DNA from: Candidatus Saganbacteria bacterium
GTDB lineage: Bacteria > Margulisbacteria > WOR-1 > JAKLHX01
Assembly (NCBI GenBank): GCA_026387835.1
Contig: JAPLKZ010000011.1
Span: 54,082-86,081, forward strand
DNA length: 32,000 nucleotides
Direction of reading: 5' to 3'
Shown: one piece after another, positions 1,446 to 25,367 of the stretch
Numbering within the stretch: the stretch's first letter is position 1
How the letters are laid out: the number at the start of each line of letters is the position of its first letter
Notes under the pieces: generated by a model
The model's database searches: none
Seen by the model: the letters and a program-made list of their open reading frames with translations, nothing else
What the model was told of the DNA's origin: nothing
Program-made: the position numbers and the translations under genes

Positions 1446-1564
1446 ATTAATATCTTTACAAACAACAGCTCGGGCTTCCCATGCTTATTGCTTGTTCCCA
1501 TCTGCATAGTTGTCGCCGGTATTTTAAGGAAATTTCACCCATTTTGCTAAGGCGTTATAGTAAA

Positions 1565-3760
1565 ATGTCATTAATGAGACCGATCGACCTCAATGGTCAG
1601 TGGCAGTTCATAAAAGACCCGAAAGACATCGGCGAGAGTGAAGGTTATTTCAGGTCCCCGCAAAAATTCAAAAAAGCCAAAAAGATCAGTGTCCCGTCAA
1701 ACTGGGAGACCGCTGGGATAGAAAACTACAGCGGGACTGTGTGGTTTTACAGAGAAATCGATAAGGTGGATATTTCTGATGATGAAGACGCGATCCTCCA
1801 TTTCATGGGAGCGGACTATTTTTGTAAAGTCTGGCTGAACGGAGAATATTTAGGGGAACACGAAGGATATTTTCAGCCGTTTGAATTCGATGTTGCGGAC
1901 AAGGCCGGCAAAAAAACCAAAAACATTCTGATCGTAAAAGTATCTTCGCCTGCGGAAAAGACAGGAAAGGACGATTGGCCGCACAAAAAAAAACTTATCA
2001 AGGGAGTATTTGGCCATCACGATGTCAGGCCAGGGGCCTGGTCTGAAAAGCTTGGGCAGTCCCATGGTACCGGAGGTATATGGAACGATGTCTCTATTTC
2101 AATACTTCCGAAGGTAAGGATCTCAGGAATAAAAGTCAGTCCGGTACTTAAAGATAATTATAAAACTGCCGAATTAGACGTTGAAATATTTATTGAAAAT
2201 AAGTCAAATAACGATATTTCTGCAAAGGTTGAGTTAGAAATATCCTACTGGCTTTTGACGTCCGACAAACAGCCTTCGCCCGTAAAAAAAATTGAACTGG
2301 ACGCCGCCGTACTGCCGGGTGTAAATGTCTGCAAGACAAAAATTGAGATAAGAAATCCGTTCTTATGGTGGCCGTGGGACCACGGCGAGCAGAACCTGTA
2401 TGTAATGAACGCAAAACTGTTTGTCCCGTCCGCCGGACAGCCGGTATCGGAGGCCGTCCAGAGGTTCGGGATCAGGGAAATAAAGATATCGGAAAAAGAT
2501 AAAGGATGGATACTCAACGGCAGAAAAATATTTATCAGGGGATCGAACATCATCCCCGAGGAATATCTTTCTACTTATACGGCTGAACGCATAAAAAAGG
2601 ATGTCGGGATCATCAAGGACGCGAACTGCAATGCGGTAAGGGTCCATGCTCATATAAACAGGAAGGAATTATATGACGCGCTTGACGAGGCCGGAATAAT
2701 GGTATGGCAGGATTTTCCGCTCCAGTGGGAATACGTGGACACCCGGGAATTCATCGAAGAAGCGTGCAGGCAGATAAAAGACATGGTAAATCTTCTTCAC
2801 AATAATCCGTGTGTCATGCTCTGGTGCTGCCACAATGAACCGGTCGTCACGGGAAAGGCCATCGATTCCGCCCTGTATCAGGCCGTGAAAGAAGAAGACC
2901 GGACAAGAATAACAATAAAGGCGTCCGATTTTCACGAGCACCCGTATCCCGGATGGTTCTGGGGGCACTACCGGTATTATTTCGCTCTTCCCGGCAAGCC
3001 TTTCCCGACGGAATTCGGCGCGCAGGCGCTGCCCGGGATCGATACATTAAAAAAAATGTTCGAAAAAAAGGATCTCTGGCCGCCAAAATGGGGCATATGG
3101 GCGTACAGGGATTTTGTCTACGAGCAGACGTTCCATATCGCCGGCGTCAGACGCGGTAAAAGCATAAATGAATTCATAAAAAACAGCCAGGCTTACCAGT
3201 CCGGCCTGATAAAATACGCGGTCGAAAGATACCGCCAGCACAAAGGAAGCGAGATATCCGGAATGTTCCATTTCATGCTGCTCGAGCCGTGGCCGGCCGT
3301 CTCATACTCAGTGACGGACTATTTCAGGAACCCCAAAAAAGGTTTTTTCACTCTTAAGACATGTTTCCAGCCGGTGCTTGTCATCGCGTCGCTCCAGAGG
3401 AGGACTTTCGGGCCGGGGAACAGGATCGAAGGCCAGTTCTGGGTCGTGAACGACTATTTCAGGGATTTTTACGGCGCAAAGCTGGCGATCTCCGTCAAAA
3501 GAGGCGGTAAGGTATTAATAAGATATAGTAATGTAATGATAGATATCGAAAGGGACACTTGCAAGGAGATAACAAATATTGTATATTCAAATACAAAAGG
3601 ACTGGAACTGCCTTCATCCGCCAAAGAAGGTCCGTGCGAAATGGTGATGGAGGTTTATGATGCTTTTGGCGCTTTTCTCTCGGCCAATACGGAAGAGCTG
3701 ATCCTGGAAAAAATCCCAAAAGAGATTAAACAGTTCAACGCAGAATTTATATGGGAGTGA
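1565..3760 (+). CDS. Glycoside hydrolase family 2, beta-mannosidase-like
   Basis: The ORF is open from 1481. I prefer ATG 1565 (MSLMRPIDLNGQWQF) or 1574, because the first 28 codons (MLIACSHLHSCRRYFK...) look non-native. GH2 sugar-binding block: WETAGIENYSGTVWFYREI...HFMGADYFCKVWLNGEYLGEHEGYFQPFEFDV. Candidate acid/base residue in MLWCCHNEP and nucleophile in PFPTEFGAQALP, resembling the SEFG.QS.P motif of beta-mannosidases. Confidence 0.8.
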   Translation: MSLMRPIDLNGQWQFIKDPKDIGESEGYFRSPQKFKKAKKISVPSNWETAGIENYSGTVWFYREIDKVDISDDEDAILHFMGADYFCKVWLNGEYLGEHEGYFQPFEFDVADKAGKKTKNILIVKVSSPAEKTGKDDWPHKKKLIKGVFGHHDVRPGAWSEKLGQSHGTGGIWNDVSISILPKVRISGIKVSPVLKDNYKTAELDVEIFIENKSNNDISAKVELEISYWLLTSDKQPSPVKKIELDAAVLPGVNVCKTKIEIRNPFLWWPWDHGEQNLYVMNAKLFVPSAGQPVSEAVQRFGIREIKISEKDKGWILNGRKIFIRGSNIIPEEYLSTYTAERIKKDVGIIKDANCNAVRVHAHINRKELYDALDEAGIMVWQDFPLQWEYVDTREFIEEACRQIKDMVNLLHNNPCVMLWCCHNEPVVTGKAIDSALYQAVKEEDRTRITIKASDFHEHPYPGWFWGHYRYYFALPGKPFPTEFGAQALPGIDTLKKMFEKKDLWPPKWGIWAYRDFVYEQTFHIAGVRRGKSINEFIKNSQAYQSGLIKYAVERYRQHKGSEISGMFHFMLLEPWPAVSYSVTDYFRNPKKGFFTLKTCFQPVLVIASLQRRTFGPGNRIEGQFWVVNDYFRDFYGAKLAISVKRGGKVLIRYSNVMIDIERDTCKEITNIVYSNTKGLELPSSAKEGPCEMVMEVYDAFGAFLSANTEELILEKIPKEIKQFNAEFIWE

Positions 3761-3764: not shown

Positions 3765-4700
3765 GTGCAAAAAAATCTCTGGTCGCAGATAGTTAAGTAC
3801 AGGTTCGCCTATTATTTTATTCTGCCGACTTTCATAGGGATGCTGTTCCTTCACATATTTCCGATATTCCAGGCGATCTACATGTCTTTTCTGAGGCTCA
3901 ATCAATTCACTTTAAGCCAGTACCTTATGGCGCCTTTCGTGGGCCTTGAGAACTATTATGAGATCATCGTGAACGCGAACAGCCCGATACGCATCGGACT
4001 GCTGGAAGCGATCAGGAATACGGTGATCTATACGGTCCTGGTCACCATCGGCACCATAGCGGTCGGCATGGTGGTCGCTCTTATGGTGAACAGAAAGTTC
4101 AGAGGAAAAAACATAGTAAGGGCGCTGTTCCTTTTCCCGTGGGTCGTTCCGACATACGTGACCGGCCTTCTGTGGGGGTTCATGTGGCAGAAGGAGATCG
4201 GCGTGATAAACATACTGCTTGTAGACTGGCTCCATCTTTTGCCTTCCAAGCCGTTCTGGCTTCTCGGCCCCAACACTTTGTGGGCGATAATAATACCGAC
4301 GATCTGGCGTTACTGGCCGCTTTCCATGCTCATGCTTCTTGCCGGGATGCAGTCGATACCGGACGAGCTTTACGAAGCGGCGGAGATCGACGGAGCGTCA
4401 GCCTGGAAAAAATTCTGGACGATCACTTTTCCGATGCTGAAACCGGTCTGGGCGATATTGATACTTTTCGGTCTTATATACAACACTTATTCTTTCAATA
4501 TCGTGATAATGATGTTCGGGTTCGGCGCCGGATACCCCGGCGAGTGGGGAGACCTTATGATGACGAACATATTCAGGAATACGTTCCAGCAATGGGCTTT
4601 CGGTGTGGGCGCGGCAGCTTCCGTGCTTTTGATGTTCTTTATGATAATAATCGTCAATTTCTGGTTCAGGTTCTATAAAAAATCAGAGGAAATGATGTAA
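3765..4700 (+). CDS. ABC sugar transporter permease, MalF/UgpA type
   Basis: 311 aa with a GTG start 4 nt after the GH2 stop and an SD-like gggag upstream. Six predicted hydrophobic spans. EAA loop: EAAEIDGASAWKKFWTITFPMLKP. Confidence 0.9.
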   Translation: MQKNLWSQIVKYRFAYYFILPTFIGMLFLHIFPIFQAIYMSFLRLNQFTLSQYLMAPFVGLENYYEIIVNANSPIRIGLLEAIRNTVIYTVLVTIGTIAVGMVVALMVNRKFRGKNIVRALFLFPWVVPTYVTGLLWGFMWQKEIGVINILLVDWLHLLPSKPFWLLGPNTLWAIIIPTIWRYWPLSMLMLLAGMQSIPDELYEAAEIDGASAWKKFWTITFPMLKPVWAILILFGLIYNTYSFNIVIMMFGFGAGYPGEWGDLMMTNIFRNTFQQWAFGVGAAASVLLMFFMIIIVNFWFRFYKKSEEMM

Positions 4701-4701: not shown

Positions 4702-6507
4702 ATGTTCAACTTGCCTTATTACATGAGGCAGCGCATAACAAAAAGAGCTACTGACGTAGTGATGGTAGTCTTTCTGATTATTACCCTTTTTCCTATTTTC
4801 TGGATGGTTTTTTCTTCTTTTAAAAGCAATACCGAGATTCTGCTGGGAAAGATCCCTTTCGGCAGGGCGAGCAACGACGCGGTCTACATGGAACAGAGAG
4901 GGAAAAGCCTCTTTGTGCTCACAGCCGACGGCGGGCTGAATAAATTTGATATCAGCACAAATGAGCTGATAAAACGCGGGTCCATAAAGTCGATGGCCAC
5001 GAGCTATATTACGGATGATGTTAATATCTGGGCCGGCTCTTCCGACAAAGGGCTTGTCCAAATTTCCATGGATGACCTTTCAAAAAAGAGACGTTTTGAT
5101 GCCGATGTCGAAGGGAAAGATATATCAAAAATTGTATCGACATTTCTGCTGCAGGATGAGAATACGATCTATATGGGTTTTCAGCAAAAGGGGGTCGAAA
5201 AACTTTACAAATTTGACAAGCCGACAAGGACTTTTTCCGGTACTATTTCTTTCGGCGGGCCTCTCTCCCCGTGCCAGGCGGCTTCGGCGGTGCTCTTCGG
5301 GGGACAGATATGGATAGGCACGAACAAGGGGCTGATAGTCTGCGACAAAAAGACCGGACAGTCCGTAAAGACCTATAACGGCAACGATCTTGGTATCCCT
5401 CCCGTTGACATCAAAAAAATGGTCCTTTTCAAGGATGAAATACTGCTTTCAACATCTTCGGGGATATTCGGTTTTTCTCCGTCGGCCGGAAAGGTCATAA
5501 AGATATACAACCAAGCATCCGGACTTCTGTCGGACAGGGCCAATAACATTCTTACCGACGGGAACAGGATATTTGCAGGGCTCAACAACGGGCTTTCTAT
5601 AATAGACACTTCTACCGGGAACATTAAAAATATTGAAAGCTTGTTCGTCCCGGTGCAAGGCTCAAACGAAAAAGGTTTCGTGCACGGAGATGTGTTCGGG
5701 ATGGCAAAAACTGAAAAAGGCATCATGCTCGGGTCAAGCGGCGGAAGGATAAGTTTTCTTGGCGCGAACAACGCGCCGTCGCAGACGTTAAAAGCGGGAG
5801 AAGGGCATATCCTTATAAGGTGGAGAAATTATATAGACCTGTGGAAGAATATAAATTTCGCTCTTTATCTCAAGAACTCCATCATAATATGCGGGATAAC
5901 GATGCTGCTCGCGATGATATTCGCGACTCTCGCGGCTTACTCGCTCGCGAGGTTCGATTTCCCCGGGAACAAATTCTTCAGCATCGGGGTCCTGGCCACC
6001 CAGATGATACCGGCGATAATGTATCTCATCCCGATCTATATAATGTTCACAAAATTCACACAATGGACGGGGGTGCCCATGAAAGGGACGTACATGGGCC
6101 TGATAATGATATACAGCGCCTTCTTTATCCCGTTCTCGATATGGATACTGAGAGGATTTTTCGCGGCAATACCAGTCGAACTGGAAGAAGCGGCGCGTAT
6201 CGACGGGGCTTCGCCTTTGCAGGTATTCTGGTATATTGTTCTTCCGCTTGCGGTACCCGGGATAATCGCGACCGGCATATATGTCTTTCTGACGGCTTGG
6301 GACGAGCTGATGTTCGCCTGGGTATTATGCAATGCCGACACCATGACGATACCGGTAGGCATAAGATTGTTCGTCGGTAATTACCAGAACAGGTTCGACC
6401 TTATGATGGCGGCGGCAACGGTCGCGACGATACCCGTGATGGTGCTGTTCTTCATGCTGCAGAAACATATAGTCAAAGGCCTGACGGCAGGCGCAGTTAA
6501 AGGATAA
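4702..6507 (+). CDS. ABC sugar transporter permease, MalG/UgpE type, with a ~315-aa periplasmic propeller-like insertion after TM1
   Basis: 601 aa, starting 1 nt after the upstream stop with an SD gagga. N-terminus: VVMVVFLIITLFPIFWMVFSSFK. Core: RNYIDLW...AAYSLARFDFPG. EAA loop: EAARIDGASPLQVFWYIVLPLAVPG. Residues ~55-370 form seven repeats of the type IWIGTNKGLIVCD. Confidence 0.85.
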   Translation: MFNLPYYMRQRITKRATDVVMVVFLIITLFPIFWMVFSSFKSNTEILLGKIPFGRASNDAVYMEQRGKSLFVLTADGGLNKFDISTNELIKRGSIKSMATSYITDDVNIWAGSSDKGLVQISMDDLSKKRRFDADVEGKDISKIVSTFLLQDENTIYMGFQQKGVEKLYKFDKPTRTFSGTISFGGPLSPCQAASAVLFGGQIWIGTNKGLIVCDKKTGQSVKTYNGNDLGIPPVDIKKMVLFKDEILLSTSSGIFGFSPSAGKVIKIYNQASGLLSDRANNILTDGNRIFAGLNNGLSIIDTSTGNIKNIESLFVPVQGSNEKGFVHGDVFGMAKTEKGIMLGSSGGRISFLGANNAPSQTLKAGEGHILIRWRNYIDLWKNINFALYLKNSIIICGITMLLAMIFATLAAYSLARFDFPGNKFFSIGVLATQMIPAIMYLIPIYIMFTKFTQWTGVPMKGTYMGLIMIYSAFFIPFSIWILRGFFAAIPVELEEAARIDGASPLQVFWYIVLPLAVPGIIATGIYVFLTAWDELMFAWVLCNADTMTIPVGIRLFVGNYQNRFDLMMAAATVATIPVMVLFFMLQKHIVKGLTAGAVKG

Positions 6508-6533: not shown

Positions 6534-8180
6534 ATGATGATGAAGAAATCAGTTCTTGTTTTCATGTCCGCAATTATCTTGTGCGGGGCCGTTTCGGTGG
6601 CCTTGGCACAGGATAAGGTCAGCGCAGCCGTTAATCAGGCGTGTTATTTTGGAATATTCAGGCAAGGTGCTCCCGGAAATATGGGCCTCATAAACAGCCT
6701 TGAAAAAAAGACAGGGAAAAAATTTTCGGTCATCATGTGGTACCAGGATTGGAGCACGACTTTTAATAAAAGCCTCTGCGACAAGGTAGTCAGGAAAGGT
6801 GCAGTGCCGCACATCGTCTGGGAGCCCTGGCTGTGGTCTGACAAAGAAAAGATCAAACTCGGCAATATTTTGGCGGGTGAGTGGGACTCGCATATCAGGC
6901 AGTACGCGCAGGATGTGAGAAACTGGGGAAAACCGATCTTTATCAGATGGGGGCATGAGTTCAATATCGAAGGATATCCGTGGTGTGTCGTCAACAACGG
7001 CAAAGACCCGAAAAAATATGTTGATGCTTTCAGGCACGTGAAAAACATTTTTAATGAAGAAGGCGCCGACAATGCGATGTTCGTCTGGTGCCCGATGAGG
7101 GAATCGTGGCCGCAGGAAAAATGGAATGATATGGAGCTTGCTTATCCCGGGGACGAATATGTCGACTGGATCGGCATAGACGGCTATAACTGGGGCGTCA
7201 CCCAGCCGTGGAGCCAGTGGCAGAGCTTCAAGGAGCTTTTCAGGGATGTCTCAAGGAGCCTCTGGAGGGCGCACCCGACAAAACCGATAATGATAGCCGA
7301 GTTCGCGAGCGCCGACCTGGGCGACGACAAAGCCGGATGGATACTTGATATGAACGAAGAGCTGAAAAAGATGCCCTACATAAAGGCCATTAACTGGTTT
7401 GACGAAAAAAAAGAGGCTGACTGGAGGATCGAAAGCACGCCCAAAACTCTGGCAGCTTTTAAAACTCTGATTAAAGACCCGTATTTTACAGCTTCATCAG
7501 CTGGGATCGCGGATATTAAACAGGCTTTTAAATTCGGGATAGAAAAGAAAAAAGCTGTTGCAAGGTATGCCTCAACATCCGTTAAGATCGATGCGGATAT
7601 ATCTGACTGGATGACCGATTCATTTATGACGATAGATCAGGAATCCCAAATCCAGGAAGGTGCAAATCTATGGAAAAGTCCTTCAGACCTCAGTGCAAAG
7701 GTCTATTTAAAGTGGGACAACGATAACCTTTATATTGCTGCAGATGTTACTGACAAAAACCCGTTGATCAATTCAAAGAAGGGAAAGAATATCTGGAACG
7801 GCGATGCAATAGAAATTTGCCTCGGACTTGATAATTATGAAAGATCAAAACTAGGGGACAAAGATTTTCAGATTGGTTTCAGCAGCGGTAACGGTAAACT
7901 AGTCAGGCCATCAGTATGGATATGGACCAATTCACTTGCACCAGAAAATGCGGATATTGCAGTAGTGAAGACAATCGGCAAAAACGGTTATATACTTGAG
8001 GCAAAATTGCCGTGGGCTGCCATGGGCAGTTTCAGGCCTTCAAACGGTCAGAAGATTGGATTTGACTGTGCTATAGACAGTGCCAGCTTACGCGACAGGG
8101 ACCTTCAGATGGTATGGAACGGGGATTATTATTTCTACAAGGACCCAGGGGTCTGGGGCGAACTGGAATTTGCCAAATAA
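6534..8180 (+). CDS. Secreted GH26-like glycanase (beta-mannanase-like) with a C-terminal CBM9-like domain
   Basis: Signal peptide MMMKKSVLVFMSAIILCGAVSVALA. GH26-type blocks: IFIRWGHEFNIEGYPW (acid/base Glu), YPGDEYVDWIGIDGYNWG and KPIMIAEFAS (nucleophile Glu). C-terminal pattern typical of CBM9-like modules: IDADISDW...VYLKWDNDNLYIAADVTDKNP...WNGDAIEI...GYILEAKLPW...GQKIGFDCAIDSA. Confidence 0.8.
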   Translation: MMMKKSVLVFMSAIILCGAVSVALAQDKVSAAVNQACYFGIFRQGAPGNMGLINSLEKKTGKKFSVIMWYQDWSTTFNKSLCDKVVRKGAVPHIVWEPWLWSDKEKIKLGNILAGEWDSHIRQYAQDVRNWGKPIFIRWGHEFNIEGYPWCVVNNGKDPKKYVDAFRHVKNIFNEEGADNAMFVWCPMRESWPQEKWNDMELAYPGDEYVDWIGIDGYNWGVTQPWSQWQSFKELFRDVSRSLWRAHPTKPIMIAEFASADLGDDKAGWILDMNEELKKMPYIKAINWFDEKKEADWRIESTPKTLAAFKTLIKDPYFTASSAGIADIKQAFKFGIEKKKAVARYASTSVKIDADISDWMTDSFMTIDQESQIQEGANLWKSPSDLSAKVYLKWDNDNLYIAADVTDKNPLINSKKGKNIWNGDAIEICLGLDNYERSKLGDKDFQIGFSSGNGKLVRPSVWIWTNSLAPENADIAVVKTIGKNGYILEAKLPWAAMGSFRPSNGQKIGFDCAIDSASLRDRDLQMVWNGDYYFYKDPGVWGELEFAK

Positions 8181-9180
8181 CAGATCATTCAGTGTCCTTA
8201 TAATACTGGCCGCATCATTATTTTTGGCCGTACATTCGGGATGCGAGAAATACTCTTCGTCTTCAGATAAGGTCTATGGAAAGATAGCTGCCGACCCTTC
8301 AGGTTGTTATATCGGCGCTTTTGTCACCGGCACCACAAACATCTCCGGTTACGAGAGCGATATCGGGACAAAGCTTGCCTGTGTCATGTGGTACATCAAT
8401 TTTACCCAGGATTTTCCAAAGACGGACTGCGACAGTGTTATTGCCAACGGGAGCATTCCCTGTATAACCTGGGAGCCGTGGAAAGGCGTTATACCGGATG
8501 AAAGCTATTCATTGCAGAACATAATTGACGGGGACTTCGATACTTATATAAATTCATGGGCGGTTTCAGCCAAAAATTTTAAGTACCCGATCTTTGTAAG
8601 GTTCGCGCACGAGATGAACGGGAACTGGTATCCCTGGGACGGATCGCACAACGGAGGATCGTCAGGCGGACCGGCAAAATATATAAGCGCCTGGAGACAT
8701 GTCTATACAATATTCCGTGATGCGGGGGCTGAAAATGTCACGTGGGTGTGGGACGTGAATGCTGACAGCGTGCCGGCGGATGACTGGAACAAGGCCGAGA
8801 ATTATTATCCGGGGGACGCTTATGTCGACTGGATCAGCGTTGACGGCTACAACTGGGGGACTTCATCAGCCGGCACCTCATGGCAGGATTTTGATTCGAT
8901 ATTTCTTTCCGCTTATAATACATTATATGAAGACCATTCCGGAAAGCCTATAATGATCGGGGAAACGGCATCCACCGAAGACGGGGGCAGCAAATCCGAC
9001 TGGATAAAGGACGCTTTTGATAAATTGAGGACGAAATATGCCGGCATCAAATTATTCAACTGGTTCAATATCGATAAAGAAACGGACTGGAGGATACAAT
9101 CGAGCGCTTCGGCAAAACAGGCGATGAAAGATGCGATGACAGGGTCTAAATATTTTATAAGCAAAATTCCGCTGAATTAA
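8170..9180 (+). CDS. Second GH26-like glycanase, catalytic domain only, possible lipoprotein
   Basis: Paralogous blocks: IFVRFAHEMNGNWYPW, YPGDAYVDWISVDGYNWG and KPIMIGETAS. The track start (ATG 8080) would overlap the upstream gene by 101 nt. TTG at 8170 gives MPNNRSFSVLIILAASLFLAVHSGC, a signal peptide with a Cys, and overlaps the upstream stop by 11 nt. The start is uncertain. Confidence 0.75.
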   Translation: MPNNRSFSVLIILAASLFLAVHSGCEKYSSSSDKVYGKIAADPSGCYIGAFVTGTTNISGYESDIGTKLACVMWYINFTQDFPKTDCDSVIANGSIPCITWEPWKGVIPDESYSLQNIIDGDFDTYINSWAVSAKNFKYPIFVRFAHEMNGNWYPWDGSHNGGSSGGPAKYISAWRHVYTIFRDAGAENVTWVWDVNADSVPADDWNKAENYYPGDAYVDWISVDGYNWGTSSAGTSWQDFDSIFLSAYNTLYEDHSGKPIMIGETASTEDGGSKSDWIKDAFDKLRTKYAGIKLFNWFNIDKETDWRIQSSASAKQAMKDAMTGSKYFISKIPLN

Positions 9181-9295: not shown

Positions 9296-9967
9296 ATGAA
9301 AAAGAGAGTGATGGCGATGATACTGGCAGCAAGTCTTATTGCGGTTTCCGTCTCGGCTGCGGTTGCGTTGAGTTCAAAGCTGATCGACAACTTTGAGAGC
9401 AATATCGACTTGAAAAGCCCTGAGTGGTGGCACTTCGGCTATGTTACCGTGTCCGTCGAAAAGAACCCCGCTTTCAGGCCAGGGGACAAAGTGGCCAAAA
9501 GCTGCGGCAAGTATTCAATGGTCATAAAAGGAAGCGCGAACGACTGGTACTGCGGCGGCGTCGGCTCCTATATCGGTGTTGATGCGTCAGGCTACTCCGG
9601 GATGGAAATGTGCGTGTACGGGTACGGTCCGGGTAGCGGGAAACTGAAAATCGAGCTTTATGACGATGACAAGGGAAGCTGGCAGACGCAGTACGACAGG
9701 GACTGGATCCCCTTAAAGGATGATATTTGGAAATTCGAGCAGGACGTCGACTGGAGAGGATGGAAAAAGATCTATATACCATTCTCCAGTTTTGTTGTGT
9801 CAAATCCAAAAAGAGGAGATGGAATACTCAATCTTGACCAGAACAAAGGCTCAGGCGGACTTCTGCAGGTGCAGTTCATCCTGATAGCCAGTTCAAAAGA
9901 CGGAGAGGCAAATATTAGAATGGATAATGTATCGCTTGTAACAAGGAGCGAGGAATCAGAGGAATGA
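9296..9967 (+). CDS. Secreted beta-sandwich protein, possibly a carbohydrate-binding (CBM11/CIA30-like) module
   Basis: Signal peptide MKKRVMAMILAASLIAVSVSAAVA. The mature part starts LIDNFESN...WWHFG...GKYSMVIKG...GKLKIELYDDD...NIRMDNVSLV, which resembles DFE-type lectin or CBM jelly rolls. The functional call is tentative. The stop overlaps the next ATG (ATGA at 9964-9967). Confidence 0.5.
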   Translation: MKKRVMAMILAASLIAVSVSAAVALSSKLIDNFESNIDLKSPEWWHFGYVTVSVEKNPAFRPGDKVAKSCGKYSMVIKGSANDWYCGGVGSYIGVDASGYSGMEMCVYGYGPGSGKLKIELYDDDKGSWQTQYDRDWIPLKDDIWKFEQDVDWRGWKKIYIPFSSFVVSNPKRGDGILNLDQNKGSGGLLQVQFILIASSKDGEANIRMDNVSLVTRSEESEE

Positions 9968-10545
9968 GGATATCGACCAAGGTACGAAAAGTCTTTATTT
10001 TTTCCCTGCTGTGCGCAGCGGCAATGACAGTCGCCTGTCAGGCGGCCACGGTCACGCTGGGCGGAAATGTAAGCGTTAAAGTATCCGGCGTTTTTACGCT
10101 GTCGATAGACACGTCTTCAGTAGATTTTGGATCTTCAAGGCCGGGAGACTGGAAAGAGGTCCCTTCAACATCTGGATACGCGGATGCCGTTGTGTGCAAA
10201 TCAAATACCGGAAGCGCCTGGTATTTAAAAATAAAGGCAAGCGGACCTCTTTCCTCCGGTTCAAATTCAATACCCCTGGCAAATTTCGGCTGGATGTCCT
10301 CTTATGCGGGCAGCAAGAACACCCCGTATAATAATTTGAGCTCCGGTCTGACGCACCAGCCGGCAGAGGGATATCAGGCTTTTACAGGTTCGGACCAGGG
10401 AGTCTACACATCGGGCCCGGCAGATAACAACAGCATGCCTAACGGAACGGAGGTACAGTTCAAATACAGCGTACAAGTACCGGATAACCCGTCGCAGCTG
10501 GCAGGCACGTACACTACGACCGTGACGTATACGATGACGGAATAG
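9964..10545 (+). CDS. Secreted pilin/fimbrial-subunit-like protein, paralog 1
   Basis: 193 aa with signal peptide ...LLCAAAMTVACQA. Shares blocks with the next two genes: VDFGSSRPGDWKEV, WYLKIKAS, IPLANFGWMSSYAG and EVQFKYSVQVPDNPSQLAGTYTTTVTYTMTE. Confidence 0.6.
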   Translation: MRISTKVRKVFIFSLLCAAAMTVACQAATVTLGGNVSVKVSGVFTLSIDTSSVDFGSSRPGDWKEVPSTSGYADAVVCKSNTGSAWYLKIKASGPLSSGSNSIPLANFGWMSSYAGSKNTPYNNLSSGLTHQPAEGYQAFTGSDQGVYTSGPADNNSMPNGTEVQFKYSVQVPDNPSQLAGTYTTTVTYTMTE

Positions 10546-10579
10546 CAGTAAGCAGTAAGCTGTAAGCGGTAAGCTTAAA
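10545..10579. repeat. Tandem heptamer array (GCNGTAA) x5
   Basis: gcagtaa gcagtaa gctgtaa gcggtaa gcttaaa, starting on the last base of the TAG stop of paralog 1. The 7-nt period puts TAA in all three frames. Confidence 0.9.
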
Positions 10580-10593
10580 GAAAAAAACTTTGG

Positions 10594-10621
10594 CTTAAAG
10601 CTTAAAACTTAAGTCTTAAAG
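10594..10621. repeat. Tandem heptamer array (CTTAAAG-like) x4
   Basis: cttaaag cttaaaa cttaagt cttaaag. A further copy sits at 10574-10580, separated by an A7 tract. The SD taggaggg follows at 10632-10639. Confidence 0.85.
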
Positions 10622-10647
10622 CTATAAATAATAGGAGGGAAATAAAG

Positions 10648-11163
10648 ATGAAAAAATTATTGTGTCTGATCGCGGTCGCGGTGATCCTGACAGGAGGTAT
10701 AAGCTTTGCGCTTTCTTCAACCCAGCAGTCGACCTTCACGGTGACTGTCAGCTCGATATTCGAGCTGAGCATAGACCAGGGAATGATCGATTTTGGGAGG
10801 ATGAAGCCAGGAGAGGTGAAATGGAACATCCCTCCTTCCGGGGTGACCGTCACGGCTAAGACGAACAGCGGAAAATCATGGTTTCTCAAAGTATCTGCGA
10901 GCAATCCTTTTTCTTACGGTTCGTACATGATCCCGTATTCAAAGTTTGTCTGGACAGGCTGGACCGACGGGGCGGGAAGATGGTACGGGACCGGAAACAA
11001 TATCATGACACCGACGCCGTCGCTGGTATATGCGAGCGCTCTAGGCGAAGAAAATAACCTGCCCAGCGGCACGAACAATCATTTCAAGTTCAAATTGTCT
11101 GTGCCCGAAAACCAGTCTCCGGGCGTTTACACGACGACGGTAAAGTTCACGATGACGGAATGA
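10648..11163 (+). CDS. Secreted pilin/fimbrial-subunit-like protein, paralog 2
   Basis: 171 aa with signal peptide MKKLLCLIAVAVILTGGISFA and a strong SD. Blocks: IDFGRMKPGEVKW, WFLKVSAS, IPYSKFVWTGW and HFKFKLSVPENQSPGVYTTTVKFTMTE. Confidence 0.6.
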   Translation: MKKLLCLIAVAVILTGGISFALSSTQQSTFTVTVSSIFELSIDQGMIDFGRMKPGEVKWNIPPSGVTVTAKTNSGKSWFLKVSASNPFSYGSYMIPYSKFVWTGWTDGAGRWYGTGNNIMTPTPSLVYASALGEENNLPSGTNNHFKFKLSVPENQSPGVYTTTVKFTMTE

Positions 11164-11194
11164 TCAACTGATGATGTGCGTTGGTTGGAATAAT

Positions 11195-11761
11195 ATGATG
11201 AAAAAATTAATATTAATAGGTTTTTTGATAACTATACTTAGCGGGGCTTCAAATGCCCTGACTATGACATTGAGCGACAATACTCTTGATTTTGGGACGA
11301 TGACGCTCGGCGAGTGGAAAGAGATATCGGCGGGAGGGGGTTTTCACAACAGGCTTTCGGTGGTCTCGGACAACGGGAACGTGTGGAGGGTCTATATCAA
11401 GGCTGACCAGGAACTAATAAATACAACCATGCCCACCGTGACTATACCTAATTCAGCTTTCAAGTGGATGTCCACGTATGCGGGAAATCAAAATGCAAAC
11501 AATGAAAACTTCAGCGCAGGTCTATATCATCAGGCGGGAGACGGATATGTGCCTTTCACCCTTGTGAACGAGCTGGTCTATACATCAGGAGTAAAAACCG
11601 TATTTGATCCCGCCGACCCTTCAAAAACAACATATGTTGTAAATGATAACAATAATCTTCCGTTCGGCACAGAGATCCAGTTTAAATACGGCATCGGTAT
11701 GCCGGACAACCAGACGGCAGGCACGTATACGACGACGGTAACAATTACGGTAACACAGTAG
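11195..11761 (+). CDS. Secreted pilin/fimbrial-subunit-like protein, paralog 3
   Basis: The ORF is open from ATG 11171. ATG 11195 gives a typical signal peptide, MMKKLILIGFLITILSGASNA. Blocks: LDFGTMTLGEWKEI, WRVYIKAD, IPNSAFKWMSTYAG and EIQFKYGIGMPDNQTAGTYTTTVTITVTQ. Confidence 0.6.
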   Translation: MMKKLILIGFLITILSGASNALTMTLSDNTLDFGTMTLGEWKEISAGGGFHNRLSVVSDNGNVWRVYIKADQELINTTMPTVTIPNSAFKWMSTYAGNQNANNENFSAGLYHQAGDGYVPFTLVNELVYTSGVKTVFDPADPSKTTYVVNDNNNLPFGTEIQFKYGIGMPDNQTAGTYTTTVTITVTQ

Positions 11762-11784
11762 GAAGTAAAAAGGAGGATATAGAT

Positions 11785-12585
11785 TTGAAAAAGGTATTTT
11801 TAGCCATCGCAGGTTTAGTATTTCTTGCGCAGATAGCGTCCGCCTTTTCAATTAATGTTGATCCGCCGAGCATCTGGGAAACGATGGGCCCCGGGAGCAG
11901 CAGGTCCGGCAAGATCATGGTGGAGAACAGGGGAAGCGGCGATATCGTGGTGAACGCTTATACGGAAGACTGGGTATTTTTAAAAGACCGGAGCAAGGAA
12001 TTTAAAAAAGCGGGAACGACCCGGTATTCTTGCGCTAACTGGATAGTGCTTTACCCGACAAATTTTATCCTGGGCTCCGGGAAGACACAGGAAGTCAAAT
12101 ACACGATCTCTATGCCGTCAACGGCGCAGGGCGGGTATTACTCCGTGATATTTTTTGAGTCCAGGCTCGACAGCCGGGCATCTACAAAAAGGTCTAACGT
12201 CATCCTTTTGGGAAGGATAGGCTCGATCGTTTACGCGGAAACGCAGGGGGCCTCCAGGAAAGCAGCCGCGATAACAAATCTTTCTTTCAAGAAACTTTCA
12301 GCCAAGAAACCGTATGAAGCTATTTTTACCGTGGCAAATGAAGGCAACTCGGCCGTTTCCCCGGAAGGCAGCATCATAATAACCGACGACAGCGCGAGAC
12401 TGTACGCGAAGATAGACATAAAAAAATTCTATGTGCTCCAGGGCGAAAGGATCCCGGTGAAGGCTTACTGGGCGGGCGCGCTTCCCGAAGGGGAATACAG
12501 CGTGATAGCCACGCTCGATCTAGGGACAAAGACGCCAGTGACCGGTGTCTGCAAGCTCGTTGTCGGAGGCAGCAAAAGAAAGTAA
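11785..12585 (+). CDS. Secreted two-Ig-like-domain protein, candidate periplasmic assembly chaperone
   Basis: 266 aa with a TTG start 8 nt after the SD aaaggagg, and signal peptide MKKVFLAIAGLVFLAQIASA. It has two ~120-aa halves with beta-sandwich periodicity: SINVDPPSIWETMGPGSSRSGKIMVENRGSGDIVVNAYTEDW...GGYYSVIFFES, and AIFTVANEGNSAVSPEGSIIITD...GEYSVIATLDLG. Its position after the subunit genes mirrors the chaperone slot of Csu-type operons. Confidence 0.45.
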   Translation: MKKVFLAIAGLVFLAQIASAFSINVDPPSIWETMGPGSSRSGKIMVENRGSGDIVVNAYTEDWVFLKDRSKEFKKAGTTRYSCANWIVLYPTNFILGSGKTQEVKYTISMPSTAQGGYYSVIFFESRLDSRASTKRSNVILLGRIGSIVYAETQGASRKAAAITNLSFKKLSAKKPYEAIFTVANEGNSAVSPEGSIIITDDSARLYAKIDIKKFYVLQGERIPVKAYWAGALPEGEYSVIATLDLGTKTPVTGVCKLVVGGSKRK

Positions 12586-12616
12586 GGCCGATGTAACGTG
12601 ATGGAAGCCCATTATT

Positions 12617-15067
12617 ATGATGAAAAAATATATATTAACTATATTGTTATGCTGTTTATTCCCGGCGGTCCTGCTTGCCCCGTCATTTGCTAAAAGCACA
12701 ACTTATGTTAATCTCTCTCCCGTCGAGGAAAAGACGTTCGTCACGGGAAACCTTTACAAGGTCCTGAGCGCCAATCCCGACATCGCGCAGGCGGTCAAAA
12801 TAAGTTCGACATCTTTCAAAATAATCGGCGGAGGTCCCGGCTCTACTTTTGTATATCTCTTCGGCAGCGACGGTTATGTCAACACTATTAAAGTCGTCGT
12901 GGAGAGAAGGTCCGCCTTAGACAGCGCGGCTGCCATCGAAGGGCAGGGAAGGACTTATTCGCCGTTGAAGTTCAACTATATGTTCATGTCATACGGCGGG
13001 AGCTCCAACTCGCAGTATGCAAATAACAGGTGGGCGTACAACGGTTCAATAAACCAAATAAAGATGGCCGGTGACACCCCGCTCGGGAAAACAGATTCTT
13101 ATATCCAGTACGAAAGCTACAATTTCAAATACGGCGTGACACAGATGTTATTTAACATCAAGGACGACAAAAATTATGTGGCGTTCGGCGATAACACGGC
13201 AAATTTTTCTGATATAACCCTTCCCTACATCCATTATCAGGGATTGTATCTGCAATCCAAACTTTCCGACCTGTTAGAGGTCAAGGTGGCAGGCGGAGCA
13301 AGAGGCAACGGATACTGGGGGAAAGAAGTGAGGAACGACACGAGACCCGTACAGTCATTTTTGGGGGCGGACGTCATGTTGAAGCCGACCGCGAATTTCA
13401 ACGTAAATGTCAACGCTGTCATGTCCACGGCAGAGGCTTCGGCCGCGAGCCCGACGATATTTGGCATCGGCGCGAGATATAATCCGTTCAGCCAGGTGAC
13501 CCTTGCCGGCGAGTACGCAAGCCAGTCGGAGCTGAAAGCGTGGCAGGCAAAGGCGATATATAATTGGTCAAACCTTTATCTAAGCGGCACGTACAGGAAT
13601 GTTCCAGCGAATTTCCAGACTCCGGTGGACACGGTGAGCATGAGGGGGATCGAGGGGCTATTCCTTTCGGGCACTTACAGGCCGCTCTCATTTGTGCGTT
13701 TGAGCGCGGACGGCAGCAGGTATAAAAACTCTTATCTCCAGGATGCCGGCAGCAACACTTATAACAAGGACATGAGAGGCGAGATCGAACTTACTCTGGC
13801 GCCCAACAGCAGGTTTTTGTATTCGCCGTGGATGCAGGACCACAGGGCTTATACCAGCGGCGGTCTGGCAGAGGGCGCCATTTCCCAGCTTTCCCTCGGG
13901 TTTAAGTTCATCGGGTCTGACGTTGTGTACTTTAAATACGAGCCGACAAAATATTCTTTTTCAAGTTCGTCGGAATCTAATTACCAGAACGATAAATCTT
14001 CTGTCGGACTGCAGATGGGCCTGACCGAAACGCTCGGGATGAATTTTGAAAAAGAATGGGATGTTAAGACATACCTGGCGAATTCCTCCGTGGAGAACAA
14101 CGGTTTTTTCAAAATAACGCTGAACTATGATTCAAAGATCGGTAAAACGCCGTTCTACACCGTTGTCAACTCGAACTATTACACCGGGACCGAGAACAAC
14201 GGCAACGTGACCGAGATATGGGCGGATGTCGAACTGGGTTACCAGCCGGATGAAGATACCAAGATCTATATCAGGGGCAAGACAGCCGATTACAGCGGCA
14301 CCGGCTCCAACCTGACCGACAGGAATGAAAAACATATCAATGTCGGGCTAAAGACAGCGTTCCTTTCGGATATCGCGTGGAACGGATACGGGGATATACA
14401 GGGTTGCGTGTTCATCGATTCAAACGGCGACGGCATCAAGAATGACAGCGAGGCGGGACTTGCGGGCGTGAAAGTATCGATCGCCGGCGTGACCGTCATC
14501 ACGAACGGCCAGGGGCTCTATATTATCAAAGCCGTAAGGGCAGGGCAGGCCAGCGTAATGATGGATCAGGCTTCGACCGGACAGGGGTATATTTTAACTT
14601 CTCAAAACCCGCAGGTCTTACAGCTGGCGGCAGGCAGGACGATGAAGGCTGATTTCGGCCTGATATCAAAGTCGTCCGTCACCGGCAGAGCGTTCAAAGA
14701 TATGAATAAGAGCGGAAAGTTTGACGGGAAAGATATCCCGGCCGCCGGCATAGGCATTGTGTTTGACGGCAGCACGTATCCTACAGCTGCCGACGGGACC
14801 TACGTGATATACGATGTCAAAGAAGGCAGGCATTCCTTGAATATAAATATTGATTCCCTGCCGCAGAACTTTGTGCCGGCCGTTCCCGTCAATAATACGG
14901 TCGATGTCAAGAGAGGCGAAACATATAAATTCAATGTCGCCCTCAAAGGCCCGGACATTGCGCAGAAGAAAGCCATTAAAAGTAAAAAACTAAAAAATAT
15001 CCGGCCCAAGGTAAAAAAGGCCAAGCATTCAAAGAAAAAAACAGCATTGGGCCGGCCGGCCCGTTAA
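12617..15067 (+). CDS. Outer-membrane protein: CpaC/RcpA-type pilus N-terminal domain, ~490-aa beta-barrel-like region, two SdrD-B/Cna-B-like domains, Lys-rich tail
   Basis: Signal peptide MMKKYILTILLCCLFPAVLLAPSFA. N-domain: LSPVEEKTFVTGNLYKVLSANPDIAQAVKISSTSFKIIGGGPGSTFVYLFGSDGYVNTIKVVV. The middle is rich in Y/G/S/N alternating strands. From ~14391: GCVFIDSNGDGIKNDSEAGLAGVKVSI...NGQGLYII. From ~14675: GRAFKDMNKSGKFDGKDIPAAGIGIVFDG...DGTYVIYDV. Tail: KKAIKSKKLKNIRPKVKKAKHSKKK. Confidence 0.6.
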   Translation: MMKKYILTILLCCLFPAVLLAPSFAKSTTYVNLSPVEEKTFVTGNLYKVLSANPDIAQAVKISSTSFKIIGGGPGSTFVYLFGSDGYVNTIKVVVERRSALDSAAAIEGQGRTYSPLKFNYMFMSYGGSSNSQYANNRWAYNGSINQIKMAGDTPLGKTDSYIQYESYNFKYGVTQMLFNIKDDKNYVAFGDNTANFSDITLPYIHYQGLYLQSKLSDLLEVKVAGGARGNGYWGKEVRNDTRPVQSFLGADVMLKPTANFNVNVNAVMSTAEASAASPTIFGIGARYNPFSQVTLAGEYASQSELKAWQAKAIYNWSNLYLSGTYRNVPANFQTPVDTVSMRGIEGLFLSGTYRPLSFVRLSADGSRYKNSYLQDAGSNTYNKDMRGEIELTLAPNSRFLYSPWMQDHRAYTSGGLAEGAISQLSLGFKFIGSDVVYFKYEPTKYSFSSSSESNYQNDKSSVGLQMGLTETLGMNFEKEWDVKTYLANSSVENNGFFKITLNYDSKIGKTPFYTVVNSNYYTGTENNGNVTEIWADVELGYQPDEDTKIYIRGKTADYSGTGSNLTDRNEKHINVGLKTAFLSDIAWNGYGDIQGCVFIDSNGDGIKNDSEAGLAGVKVSIAGVTVITNGQGLYIIKAVRAGQASVMMDQASTGQGYILTSQNPQVLQLAAGRTMKADFGLISKSSVTGRAFKDMNKSGKFDGKDIPAAGIGIVFDGSTYPTAADGTYVIYDVKEGRHSLNINIDSLPQNFVPAVPVNNTVDVKRGETYKFNVALKGPDIAQKKAIKSKKLKNIRPKVKKAKHSKKKTALGRPAR

Positions 15068-17117: not shown

Positions 17118-20100
17118 TTAAAAGTTGATCGTCCCCTCGAACGTCATCATATTTGCCCTGAAATTATTTGAAGATATAAGGTAGTCCGTATAGTCGACCT
17201 CCTTGTATGTCGCCGAAAGCACGATGCTCGACAATATCAGGCTTTCCTGAGGGAGGGTGATGTTGAAGGAATAGCTGTTCGTCACCTTAAGTATGTCAAG
17301 GTTTGTGACGACCCCGGCCTGCACTTCGCCTTTGTTCCTTTCCTGCTGCCAGTTGTAGACAAGGCTCCCCCAGCTAAATATCTTCAGGGTGGTCTGCGCG
17401 TCTAAATTTTCTTTCGGGCGTTCCGCGTTCAAAATAAGGTCTTTTGTCGTCTTCATCGCATAATTCCCGGAAAAGCTGAGGATCGATACCGGGGAAAAAC
17501 TCAGGCCGTATTTTAATGTGGTGTTTTCGGTCTTAGTGGTTATAATCCCGTCGCTGGTATTGTTGTTATAATCCTCGATTATATAGTCCGAATTCAGCGT
17601 GAACAAGCCGAAAGGAGTGATGCTGCCGTTGAAGTTCTTTGTCTCCGAGTTGAGATCGGTTATTATTTCGGAGCTCCCGCTCGGCGCGGAAGACTGACGT
17701 TCCTGCGTATCCCACCTCGAACCCAGCTTGAGAAAAGAAAATGGAGTGAAGTCTACGGAAACATTCTTTGCCACGCCCTTACTCCTTGTCCCGGCCTCCT
17801 GCAGGGATTTGTCGTCGGATCTGCCGTAGGCAAGTGACAGGACGGAAAATGGCGTGAACCTGACAGAATAGTTGTCTTTTTCTGTATTTGGGTTTTCCTG
17901 GTCTGCCTGGACGCTTAATGTTTCGGTACGGTTCTTATCATACGTGGCCGAAAGGTTGCTGAGCGGATCAAGGACGACATTATAGGATTCGTTCTTTGTA
18001 AAGACTTTGGCCAGTGTCAGGGCATTCAGCTGGTCGTGCTGGATCAGTCTTGCCCTTGTCGAGAATTTCTTCAGAAATCCGAAAGTGAGGTCCCAGTCCG
18101 CATTGTACGTGCTGTCGCGCGAGATCTCGCAGTAGGTCACTCCCTCGCTGGTATGATTTTTTGGTTCGCTGTACTGGAACTCATACCCAAGCCCCAGCCT
18201 TTTTGCCACGTTGAGCGTGTTAGCGGTATGGAAAAATCCGACGGTAGAGCCGGAGTCGTCGAGAAAGTTGGTCGTCTCGCTCTTGGAGAAATCCTCCCTG
18301 TTGGTGAAAGCCACGTATTTCGAATCAACGCTCTTTGGGACGACGGAAAAAGCGAGCGAGTTCGTGATGTTGTTTGACTGATGCGTTGTCGATCCCGGCA
18401 GGATGTCGTCCATGACCTTGTAATTCCTGAAGTTCATGTTAATCTGGACAAGGCCTTTAGGATTCACGCCGATACCTATGTTCCTGTCGGTATTCCAGGT
18501 GTAATAGCCCGTGTACGTGCCGATCTGGCTCTTGGTCTCGAGTATGCTTGAGGCTACGGACAGAGATTCCCCGGAACTGTACCCGAGATCGATCCTTTTC
18601 TGCTGGCTTCCGGTGCCGATATTGGTGGATTCGAAAGGAGTATAATCGGCATTGATCTCTTTGATGTAAGCACCGACCGAGAACGGCCCGGCTTTTGTGG
18701 CCGCATTGACCCTGTATGCGGCGCCGGTCTTGACGGTAGACCCTGTTGATATTCCGGACGACGACTGGTAATCGTACTGTATGACCATCGTATCCGCAGG
18801 TTTTATCGTGAGATAATAGAAACTCAGCTGGCCGCTCTGATAGTTCATAAAATAGTCGACGTCCTTGTTCATCTGGAAATTGTTCAAAAAGACCTTTTCC
18901 GAGCCCTCTATGATATTGTTGTGCGACAGGCTGTACGGTCCGCGGGTGTTGTTCCCGATGATCGTGTCCTGTGTTGATTCCGACATTATCACCTGGTCGG
19001 TCCTGCTGATGCCGACCGCCGCGTCGATCACGGTGTCGGGTCCGATCGTGATATTCGTGTTCACGCCAGTCACGTCGTGGTTGATGTCGCTGTCCTGGAC
19101 AGACGCGCTCGCGGGTATGTAATAGAACGTTATGTCGAACTTCTTCTGGTTAGGGAACGGATCGTTAAAAGTTATGTAGGGAGTGTACGGGAAGTTGTAG
19201 TTTATCTTGTATTTGCCGTCCGCTACTTCTCTCGAGCTGTTACGCGTAAATGTATCGATGACGGAACTGCCGTCAGTCCTGACCTGCATGTTGGTATCGG
19301 TCGCCGGCACTACGGAGTTGATGCTCGTCAGATAATAAGGTCCCGTACTCCCGTTGCCGCGGCCGCTGAATTTTCCGTAAATACTTTTCTTGTAAACATA
19401 GTTGACCGCTATATCCGCTGACGCGTCAAGCGTGGATGTGAATTTTAATGTGCCTGTCGCATAGCCGTCGCTCGCATCGTCTTTATCGTTCAGATAAGGC
19501 ATATGAAGGCCTATTGCTTCTGAAGTCGGCACGTAGAAATCAGCGAAAGGGGTACCGTTCACGGTCACGGATACCGTCTGTGACGGGTCAAGAGGGAAAT
19601 GCTTCAGGTTGAGAAGATTGTTCGTTATCTCGCTTCCTTTTCTGGCTTCGACAAGAGTGGCTGTTGCGGCGGCGGAGCCTTTTTTGGCGGACTCTTTCAG
19701 ATATGTGGCCCCCAAAGTGAATGAGCTTTTGCTCGGGGGGACCAAAGCATCAGTATGTATCACAAAGGAATAGGAAGCGTTTATTTTTGAGGCGGCATTT
19801 ATTTTTGTGTTAAAAGTTATTTTTCCGGAATTATAATCTATCGTGTAATCCAGGCCCCTGAAGTTCTTCTTGCCGTCCACCTCGATGCGCTCGGAGTTCT
19901 TTACGACAGGATATTCGGTCATCTCATACGGCCCCTTGCTGTCGATCCCTGATATGACCTCGGATTCGCCCGAGACGTTGTAATAGCTGTATTTTACAGA
20001 AAGAGTATCATCGCTTGTGGGCATGTCTTCCAGCATGGCTGTTATAGTCCCGTAAGTATAATCTATGACATAGTCCTCGTATTTTTTCAGGAGCGTCCCT

Positions 20101-21146: not shown

Positions 21147-21149
21147 TCA

Positions 21150-21178
21150 ATTTTAGCAGTAATGATATATATTGGCAA
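21150..21178 (-). promoter_or_regulatory. Sigma70-type promoter for the 1342-aa OMP gene, near-leaderless
   Basis: On the minus strand: TTGCCA (21178-21173), a 17-nt spacer, then TAAAAT (21155-21150). Nine nt (tgattgaaa) follow before ATG 21140, with no SD. Confidence 0.5.
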
Positions 21179-21193
21179 TATAAAATATTTTGC

Positions 21194-23198: not shown

Positions 23199-23203
23199 CG
23201 TGT

Positions 23204-25353: not shown

Positions 25354-25367
25354 TACTCTAAAATAAA

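Follow-up and report, generated by a model that had tools for sequence, protein, structure and literature searches.

A Reg_prop-type beta-propeller in the first periplasmic loop of a MalG-type ABC permease from Candidatus Saganbacteria

The stretch of DNA analysed here (the window) comprises 32,000 nucleotides from Candidatus Saganbacteria bacterium (contig JAPLKZ010000011.1, positions 54,082 to 86,081) and carries a gene for a 601-residue, MalG-type permease subunit of an ATP-binding cassette (ABC) importer of the CUT1 family. A single predicted seven-bladed beta-propeller of the Reg_prop type is inserted between the first two transmembrane (TM) helices of this subunit, that is, in its first periplasmic loop (P1). 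The initial annotation, made from the letters of the window, had described this architecture, had compared the propeller to the sensors of hybrid two-component systems (HTCS) and had proposed that it substitutes for, or docks, the substrate-binding protein (SBP). The open reading frame (ORF), domain matches, structure prediction and profile matches all agree with the architecture, whereas the data presented below speak against substitution. We hold with moderate confidence that the permease belongs to a canonical SBP-dependent CUT1 importer and that the propeller inserted in P1 is an accessory binding 'antenna'. No published description of a propeller-bearing ABC permease was found in the literature, nor any characterised example, as had been supposed at the outset. 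Database entries for such proteins are labelled merely 'ABC transporter permease subunit'.

The permease and its propeller insert

The gene and its parts are as follows (all on the + strand).
4702..6507, +: MalG-type (CUT1) ABC importer permease with propeller insert, 601 aa (ORF; BPD_transp_1; MalG NCBIfam; SugB match)
4750..4818, +: TM1, aa ~17-39 (hydropathy; AlphaFold2 helix aa 6-38)
4864..5790, +: insertion relative to no-insert orthologues, a single predicted seven-bladed Reg_prop-type beta-propeller (aa ~55-363, ~309 residues)
4879..4983, +: blade 1, aa 60-94, motif FVLTADGGLNKFD at aa 71-83
5002..5097, +: blade 2, aa 101-132, motif IWAGSSDKGLVQIS at aa 109-122
5140..5250, +: blade 3, aa 147-183, motif IYMGFQQKGVEKLYKFD at aa 156-172
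5278..5379, +: blade 4, aa 193-226, motif IWIGTNKGLIVCD at aa 203-215
5416..5508, +: blade 5, aa 239-269, motif ILLSTSSGIFGFS at aa 247-259
5539..5634, +: blade 6, aa 280-311, motif IFAGLNNGLSIID at aa 290-302
5698..5793, +: blade 7, aa 333-364, motif IMLGSSGGRISFL at aa 341-353
5818..6504, +: permease core, TM2-TM6 (aa 373-601), including the EAA loop and the conserved third periplasmic (P3) loop NYQNRFD

The permease core carries the Pfam domain BPD_transp_1 at aa 408-594 (E 1.6e-18; 67.6 bits for a cut-off of 26.4), a domain that is matched by all 53 members of the family, and the MalG NCBIfam model covers aa 387-601. The closest solved homologues of this core, SugB (7CAD_B, E 9e-39) and Escherichia coli MalG (E 4e-31), match the window protein only from residue ~358-387 onward and align with it end to end from TM2 on. 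Hydropathy and the structure model place TM2 at ~aa 386-417. The EAA loop, located after TM4, spans aa ~489-505 (nt 6166-6216) and includes the sequence EEAARIDG (aa 495-502), which is invariant or near-invariant in the family. The whole protein is 100% identical to a GenBank entry named 'ABC transporter permease subunit [Candidatus Saganbacteria bacterium]' that belongs to a metagenome-assembled genome.

The N-terminus ahead of TM1 is rich in K/R (four K/R and no D/E in aa 1-16) and is read as cytoplasmic. Hydropathy and the structure model indicate one TM helix before the insert and five after it, which corresponds to the six-TM topology of MalG. In permeases of this family, the EAA loop faces the cytoplasm; this arrangement and the K/R-rich N-terminus place the insert in the periplasmic loop P1 of the MalG-type subunit, where it had been located initially. 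An EAA loop and the MalG architecture with six TM helices are also found in the trehalose importer LpqY-SugABC (7CAD/8JA7) and in E. coli MalG (2R6G), but their P1 loops are short.

The boundaries of the insert were defined by alignment with no-insert orthologues of 282-291 aa, which runs through G54 and picks up again at about residue 364. The large insertion between TM1 and TM2 reported in the initial annotation is thus recovered, although the alignment gives it ~309 residues (nt 4864-5790) instead of ~315. The seven motifs quoted at that time are all present, and the interval then delimited (nt 4864-5811) corresponds to aa 55-370.

An AlphaFold2 model of the window permease, built on 53 homologues, confirms the seven-bladed beta-propeller fold as far as a prediction can: 28 strands form seven four-stranded blades with a predicted local distance difference test (pLDDT) score of ~85-95 over aa 60-370. 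In the model, the propeller is flanked by an extended TM1 helix (aa 6-38) and by TM2 (aa 384-417), with low-confidence linkers on both sides. Comparison of the model to the PDB with Foldseek retrieves 7/8-bladed propellers in general (WD40, BamB, YncE, the designed Tako8, and BT4663, 4A2L), with E values of 1e-12 to 1e-14.

An assembly chimera, which the initial annotation had listed among the findings that would refute it, is rejected because the identical protein is encoded on 5 separately assembled contigs from different samples, with neighbours that are always the same, and because more than 100 clusters of ~600-aa homologues (46-79% identity) exist.

Kinship and evolution of the propeller

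The specific kinship of the insert to Reg_prop propellers is drawn from sequence and profile matches and not from the general propeller matches returned by Foldseek. Taken as a single sequence, the window protein matches the HTCS sensor 3OTT/3VA6 at E 9.4e-9 and has no match to the Pfam Reg_prop model PF07494 at E<=1. The family profile matches the HTCS sensor propellers 3OTT/3VA6, 4A2L (BT4663) and 3V9F at E 2.5e-25 to 2.8e-24. Among the 53 family members, the models matched are the PorZ N-terminal propeller (43 members), PQQ_2 (27), DUF5074 (20) and Reg_prop itself (12). An exhaustive phmmer search with the insert only, covering 1.84 billion representatives, retrieved about ten clusters of ~600-aa permeases, each matched at residues ~45-380; the other matches of this search (total 3083) were mostly multi-propeller proteins of 900-1450 aa. 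The six non-permease relatives that were scanned all give strong matches to Reg_prop, with E values from 1e-37 to 1e-44, and one of them has a Reg_prop-Y_Y_Y-GGDEF organization. On the basis of these matches, the insert is assigned to the Reg_prop ('two component regulator propeller', PF07494) superfamily, in line with the signature recognised initially.

The propellers of the HTCS sensors BT4663 (4A2L), 3OTT/3VA6 and 3V9F are homologous to the insert, with which they have in common seven blades, a periplasmic location and a context of glycan utilisation. However, these sensors are dimeric and associate two tandem propellers and a Y_Y_Y domain with kinase, receiver and AraC modules, whereas the window permease has one ~310-aa propeller between two TM helices. 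Domain scans found neither Y_Y_Y nor signalling output domains in the family, in which BPD_transp_1 is the only further domain. The window insert is not an HTCS sensor. Propellers of the Reg_prop type also occur in PorZ, a protein of type IX secretion from Porphyromonas gingivalis that is reported to bind a glycan (A-LPS) and to hand it to a partner enzyme (PMC8545088). This delivery of a glycan resembles the hand-over role proposed below for the insert, but PorZ is located at the cell surface and has two propellers, a type IX secretion C-terminal domain and no transporter part.

The full-length form was found in ~44 GTDB species-representative genomes from Margulisiibacteriota (WOR-1, Saganbacteria, Marinamargulisbacteria and Termititenax) and Fibrobacterota. 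The genome search used the full-length alignment A1; the insert-only alignment A2 has no conserved stretch of 7-10 residues. The insert from Fibrobacterota is collinear with that of the window protein over aa 1-334 (25% identity, E 4e-23), and this alignment over the whole insert indicates a single origin of the propeller insertion in the two phyla. The mean identity to the window protein is only 34% for the insert versus 81% for the core. Despite low identity (24-65%), the length and the fold of the insert have been kept across the two phyla, which argues that its function is maintained.

A neighbour-joining tree of the membrane cores, rooted on Paenibacillus and computed without support values, places the clades of Fibrobacterota and Marinamargulis/Termititenax (full insert, adjacent SBP gene) outside a clade of WOR-1 and Saganbacteria (full insert, SBP gene not adjacent). 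Shorter forms of 478 and 289 aa nest within the latter clade, one form of 291 aa being found among those of 478 aa; the position of a no-insert clade from Elusimicrobia could reflect either loss of the insert or gene transfer. According to the alignment, the ~478-aa form (L044-L062, L073, L081 and L007; P0110-P0120) keeps blades 1-3 and 7 and does not have residues ~183-326 (nt ~5248-5679; blades 4-6). This four-blade remnant is 68-79% identical among ten clusters. Its AlphaFold2 model, a low-confidence one (10 sequences, mean pLDDT 49), contains 16 strands corresponding to four blades, without showing closure of the ring. Both the 478-aa and the 289-aa forms keep the operon synteny of the full-insert forms. 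Read from these alignments, the data show that within the clade of Saganbacteria and WOR-1 the propeller was repeatedly reduced or lost (from 7 to 4 and 0 blades) while the operon otherwise remained unchanged, and this argues that the propeller is not required for transport as such. These forms constitute a natural deletion series in otherwise identical operons and thus a ready design for testing what the extra domain contributes to capture, SBP recruitment or chain-length selectivity.

The binding protein and the role of the propeller

According to the initial annotation, the absence of an SBP gene suggested that the propeller takes the place of this protein. Neither the window, searched in all six frames by tblastn with the SBP P0325 (see below) and with an SBP hidden Markov model (HMM), nor the 10 kb upstream contain an SBP gene, and none lies within +-10 kb in ~25 related full-insert loci of the Saganbacteria/WOR-1 type. 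An SBP gene hidden in the window is rejected, as both six-frame searches gave nothing.

However, clustering of the SBP-sized proteins encoded next to full-insert permeases identified a family of ~451 aa, encoded directly upstream of the permease pair, that is a canonical SBP (SBP_bac_8, E 5.6e-36; SBP_bac_1, E 6.7e-33). According to the HMM of this family, it is adjacent to the permease in 19 full-insert loci (L029, L031-35, L038-40, L042, L043, L048, L049, L051, L052, L061, L071, L072 and L082) from Marinamargulisbacteria, Termititenax-type Margulisiibacteriota and Fibrobacterota. The same family adjoins no-insert relatives in Elusimicrobia and Paenibacillus. As it is common to full-insert and no-insert loci, the ancestral system was SBP-dependent and kept its SBP when it gained the propeller. 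The consensus of the family includes a lipobox (LxGC) with an invariant Cys23; a lipoprotein nature of the SBP is therefore likely, although these phyla are diderm.

A profile search with this family also detects orthologues in Saganbacteria and WOR-1, among them P0325 (465 aa, E 7.5e-200), an orphan SBP encoded between a gene for an AI-2E-family transporter and glmS, with no permease nearby. The longest contig carrying P0325 has the same size (140,061 bp) as the longest one carrying the window permease and comes from the same sample series, and other orthologous SBPs are likewise found on contigs equal in size to those of other propeller-permeases. In locus L093, the gene of the orthologous SBP (P0361), which glmS follows here too, lies on the same contig as the permease pair of P0027, a 55% identical homologue of the window permease; it is ~1 kb upstream of this pair and divergently transcribed from it. 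From this conserved SBP-glmS linkage, we infer that P0325 is the relocated cognate SBP of the window permease. In L088, L092 and L094, glmS invariably comes after the gene of the orthologous SBP and, in two of the genomes, is itself followed by genes of glycoside hydrolase (GH) families in the order GH94-GH42-GH94. The SBP P0342 and the permease P0054 were retrieved on separate contigs; a 1115-aa neighbour common to both would suggest a spacing of ~16 kb.

The no-insert and four-blade orthologues of the WOR-1/Saganbacteria clade, which share the same operon, do not have any adjacent SBP gene either. The 7-, 4- and 0-blade forms of this clade are thus alike, and the survey proposed in the initial annotation gives no covariation between the insert and the adjacency of an SBP gene. 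Furthermore, as orphan SBP genes relocate, a missing adjacent SBP gene is no evidence of SBP independence. The lack of a neighbouring SBP gene in the window and in the ~25 related loci is the argument for a propeller that captures the substrate itself and replaces a missing SBP in an SBP-independent transporter. This explanation appears extremely improbable considering the 19 adjacent SBP genes, the one 1 kb away in L093, the orphan P0325 and the equal absence of adjacent SBP genes from forms with four or no blades. In addition, the window permease keeps the conserved MalG P3 loop, which has a 'scoop' role in the maltose system (PMC6906923). In Candidatus Termititenax persephonae (L034:7506-9971), a single ORF (P0287, 808 aa) covers both the SBP and the MalF-type permease (SBP_bac_8 + BPD_transp_1), directly upstream of the propeller-bearing MalG-type gene; P0287 is either a genuine fusion of an SBP to a TM domain or a frameshift or assembly artefact.

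The role of the propeller as an antenna can be envisioned as follows. During evolution, a single Reg_prop-type seven-bladed propeller was inserted into the periplasmic loop P1 of a MalG-type subunit. It would act as a non-essential accessory domain where the transporter opens to the periplasm, P1 being the loop with which the SBP is in contact in the maltose system. Its conserved entry face would bind the oligosaccharide and/or the sugar-loaded SBP. This binding would raise the local concentration and be followed by hand-over to the SBP or to the translocation pathway. The propeller would thus tune the efficiency of uptake or the preference for chain length and would not replace the SBP.

Two known systems bear on this model. 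For BT4663, the disaccharide ligands were reported to bind to the entry faces of the Reg_prop propellers (PMC5121618). As to the maltose transporter, cross-links to the N-lobe of the SBP MalE are formed by the P1 loop of MalG and by the P2 loop of MalF (MalF-P2) throughout the cycle (PMC6906923). Taken together with the retained SBP, these data argue for an accessory domain at the site of contact with the SBP. When the loops of the propeller are assigned to faces by the WD40 convention (entry face = B-C and D-A loops), the two sets of entry-face loops have conservation scores of 2.84 and 2.20 bits versus 1.83 and 1.84 bits for the opposite face. Nearly all conserved polar residues (D76, D140, K143, S189, P190, Q192, N295 and R349) are in entry-face loops.

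Several points weigh against an antenna. The loops were assigned to faces by the WD40 convention instead of from coordinates, and the conserved B-C turns belong in part to the structural Reg_prop motif. The linkers (aa 40-52 and 374-382) have a pLDDT <50, and the model does not fix the orientation of the propeller with respect to the membrane domain. Sugar binding by a single propeller may differ from that of the HTCS sensors, which are dimers with two propellers and Y_Y_Y. The placement of P0325 and of the permease on one contig, drawn from the equal size (140,061 bp) of their longest contigs, is tentative. Finally, the repeated loss of the propeller could equally mean that its function is marginal. 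A bolder proposal, which we regard as possible though unlikely, would make the propeller a second glycan receptor, built into the transporter and specialised in long or branched beta-glycan oligosaccharides that are poorly handled by the SBP alone; it would feed these to the SBP or gate the transporter. If so, a Reg_prop sensor module would have been recruited from signalling into transport to give a two-receptor ABC importer, and the number of blades (7, 4 or 0) would track the chain length of the substrate in each lineage.

The propeller could also be a pure docking platform that, like the Ig-like MalF-P2, holds the (lipoprotein) SBP throughout the cycle and binds no sugar. Such a platform would fit the location of the insert in MalG P1, the loop that cross-links to the MalE N-lobe (PMC6906923), the short MalF-type partner subunit (311 aa) devoid of any P2-like domain, the retention of the SBP wherever this could be checked and the conservation of one face of the propeller. 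We nevertheless consider it distinctly unlikely, because no-insert transporters (from Paenibacillus, Elusimicrobia and the 289-aa WOR-1 forms) use the same SBP family, so that docking does not require the insert, because the insert evolves fast (34% identity for a core at 81%), in contrast to a well-conserved SBP family (57% mean column identity), and because the relatives of the propeller are saccharide sensors. Another explanation, which we judge quite improbable, makes the propeller a scaffold for envelope partners, such as the secreted enzyme with a GH26 domain and a carbohydrate-binding module (CBM) of family 9, the CBM11-like protein or a component of the outer membrane; oligosaccharides would then be made or delivered at the transporter. 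Beta-propellers are common platforms for protein interaction, BamB being among the fold matches, no neighbour of the permease pair is more conserved than the GH26/CBM9 gene, and a small secreted protein related to CBM11 or to SGBP comes next in many loci. However, the same two genes also accompany no-insert and four-blade forms, the full-insert loci of Fibrobacterota and Termititenax have a different context (SBP, MalK, GH1), and no gene that co-varies with the presence of the insert was found in the ORF maps of the loci. It is even less probable, and in our opinion very improbable, that the insert is a functionless or decaying passenger, captured by chance and being lost. Several reductions to four blades or complete losses, and an evolution far more rapid than that of the core, would be expected of such a passenger, but its seven blades, its length and its confidently predicted fold have been kept in two phyla and ~44 species-level genomes, at only 25-35% identity, without frameshifts or stops, and its conservation is not uniform but concentrated on one face.

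Folded accessory domains on membrane subunits of type I importers are rare, and the MalF-P2 loop has been described as unique to the maltose system (PMC6906923). Like the insert, the P2 loop of MalF in the E. coli maltose importer MalFGK2-E is a folded accessory domain (~180 residues) in a periplasmic loop of an importer subunit that works alongside a separate SBP. It differs from the insert by its subunit (MalF), its location (TM3-TM4 loop), its Ig-like fold and its size (~180 versus ~310 aa), and the two have no sequence relationship. In importers of the GlnPQ/OpuA type fused to substrate-binding domains, as for the insert, a potentially ligand-binding extracytoplasmic domain is covalently attached to the membrane subunit; a MalE-MalF fusion from Bdellovibrio bacteriovorus is cited as another fused importer (PMC6906923). 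The domains of these importers have, however, a true periplasmic-binding-protein fold, are terminal and replace the free SBP, whereas the insert is an internal propeller and the separate SBP is kept. The window permease is neither an SBP-fused importer nor a homologue of MalF-P2, which it resembles in role only. It instead combines a complete sensor-type propeller with a subunit other than that of MalF-P2, at the loop touching the SBP, and this combination is conserved in two poorly studied phyla of glycan degraders.

Neighbouring genes, cargo and other features of the window

The permease gene lies within an operon in which the following other genes were recognised.
1481..3760, +: GH2 enzyme, beta-mannosidase-like, first gene of the operon (Pfam GH2 domains)
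3765..4700, +: MalF/UgpA-type partner permease, 311 aa, without P2-like domain (BPD_transp_1 E 2.1e-19; UgpA/MalF NCBIfam)
6534..8180, +: secreted GH26 + CBM9 enzyme (Pfam)
8080..9180, +: second GH26-family enzyme (Pfam GH26 E 6.4e-12; real start probably ~8224)
9296..9967, +: small secreted CBM11-like protein, 223 aa (weak CBM_11 match, E 0.0034)

The stop codon of the MalF-type gene is located 1 nt before the start of the MalG-type gene, and such a partner adjoins the permease in almost all homologous loci, a partner cluster being present in 36 of them. L005 does not have any MalF-type partner adjacent to the propeller permease; in L005/L025 (OY969425.1, a 1.77-Mb chromosome), this partner must be encoded elsewhere or be missing. 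The 601-aa permease is preceded there by an ORF of 182 aa, upstream of 10001. In L041 (9032-10384), the MalF-type partner of a full-insert permease has 450 aa, with BPD_transp_1 at aa 212-442 only and ~140 extra N-terminal/loop residues. No gene for a MalK-type ATPase was found in the 32-kb window, whereas Fibrobacterota loci hold one (ABC_tran + TOBE_2 + OB_MalK). CUT1 systems often share an ATPase that is encoded elsewhere in the genome.

The GH26/CBM9 gene is directly downstream of the permease in L001, L004, L005, L007, L067, L093 and L095. If both are read from their first possible start, the two GH26 ORFs of the window overlap by 100 nt; gene callers start the second one at ~8224, and its gene call in L001 is 318 aa long. 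Counterparts of the CBM11-like protein match CBM_11 in L067 and SGBP_B_XBD in L004 and L095. The no-insert (~289 aa) and ~478-aa forms share the gene order GH26 - MalF - MalG - GH26/CBM9 - CBM11-like, and related loci carry GH94 phosphorylases, GH1, GH42, GH16, GH8, GH48 and GH116.

Concerning the cargo, manno-oligosaccharides had been proposed initially. This proposal agrees with the GH2 enzyme, whose closest PDB entries are beta-mannosidases (5N6U, E 1.4e-42), but not with the GH26/CBM9 enzyme, whose closest PDB entry is, rather than a mannanase, the GH26 module of Clostridium thermocellum CelH ('endoglucanase H', E 1.4e-49), which we take to be a lichenase. Judging from these enzyme families, the cargo is a beta-linked oligosaccharide, for which a manno-oligosaccharide is only one candidate.

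Other regions of the window have distinctive features of their own. Downstream of the operon (9964-15067, + strand), a group of three small secreted paralogues of 193, 171 and 196 aa, each ending with TYTTTVT-x-T-x-T-[EQ], is followed by a 266-aa protein with a signal peptide and then by an 816-aa protein with matches to T2SS-T3SS_pil_N and SdrD_B. This set, for which no informative Pfam matches were obtained, looks like a cassette of the pilus or surface-fibre type and has a similar counterpart behind the permease operons of L004 and L093. Further on, an ORF of 1342 aa on the - strand (17118-21146) with a match to DUF2460, a conserved protein of phage type, precedes an AAA_14/DUF4143 ATPase gene (21332-22471, + strand); this region (17118-22471) may be the remnant of a mobile element. 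Lastly, the stretch 23000-28947 has a low GC content (0.34-0.40 versus ~0.48 elsewhere) and includes two paralogous 7TM-HisKA/GAF histidine kinase genes (23204-25300 and 26830-28947) that flank a class I/II aminotransferase gene (25368-26684).

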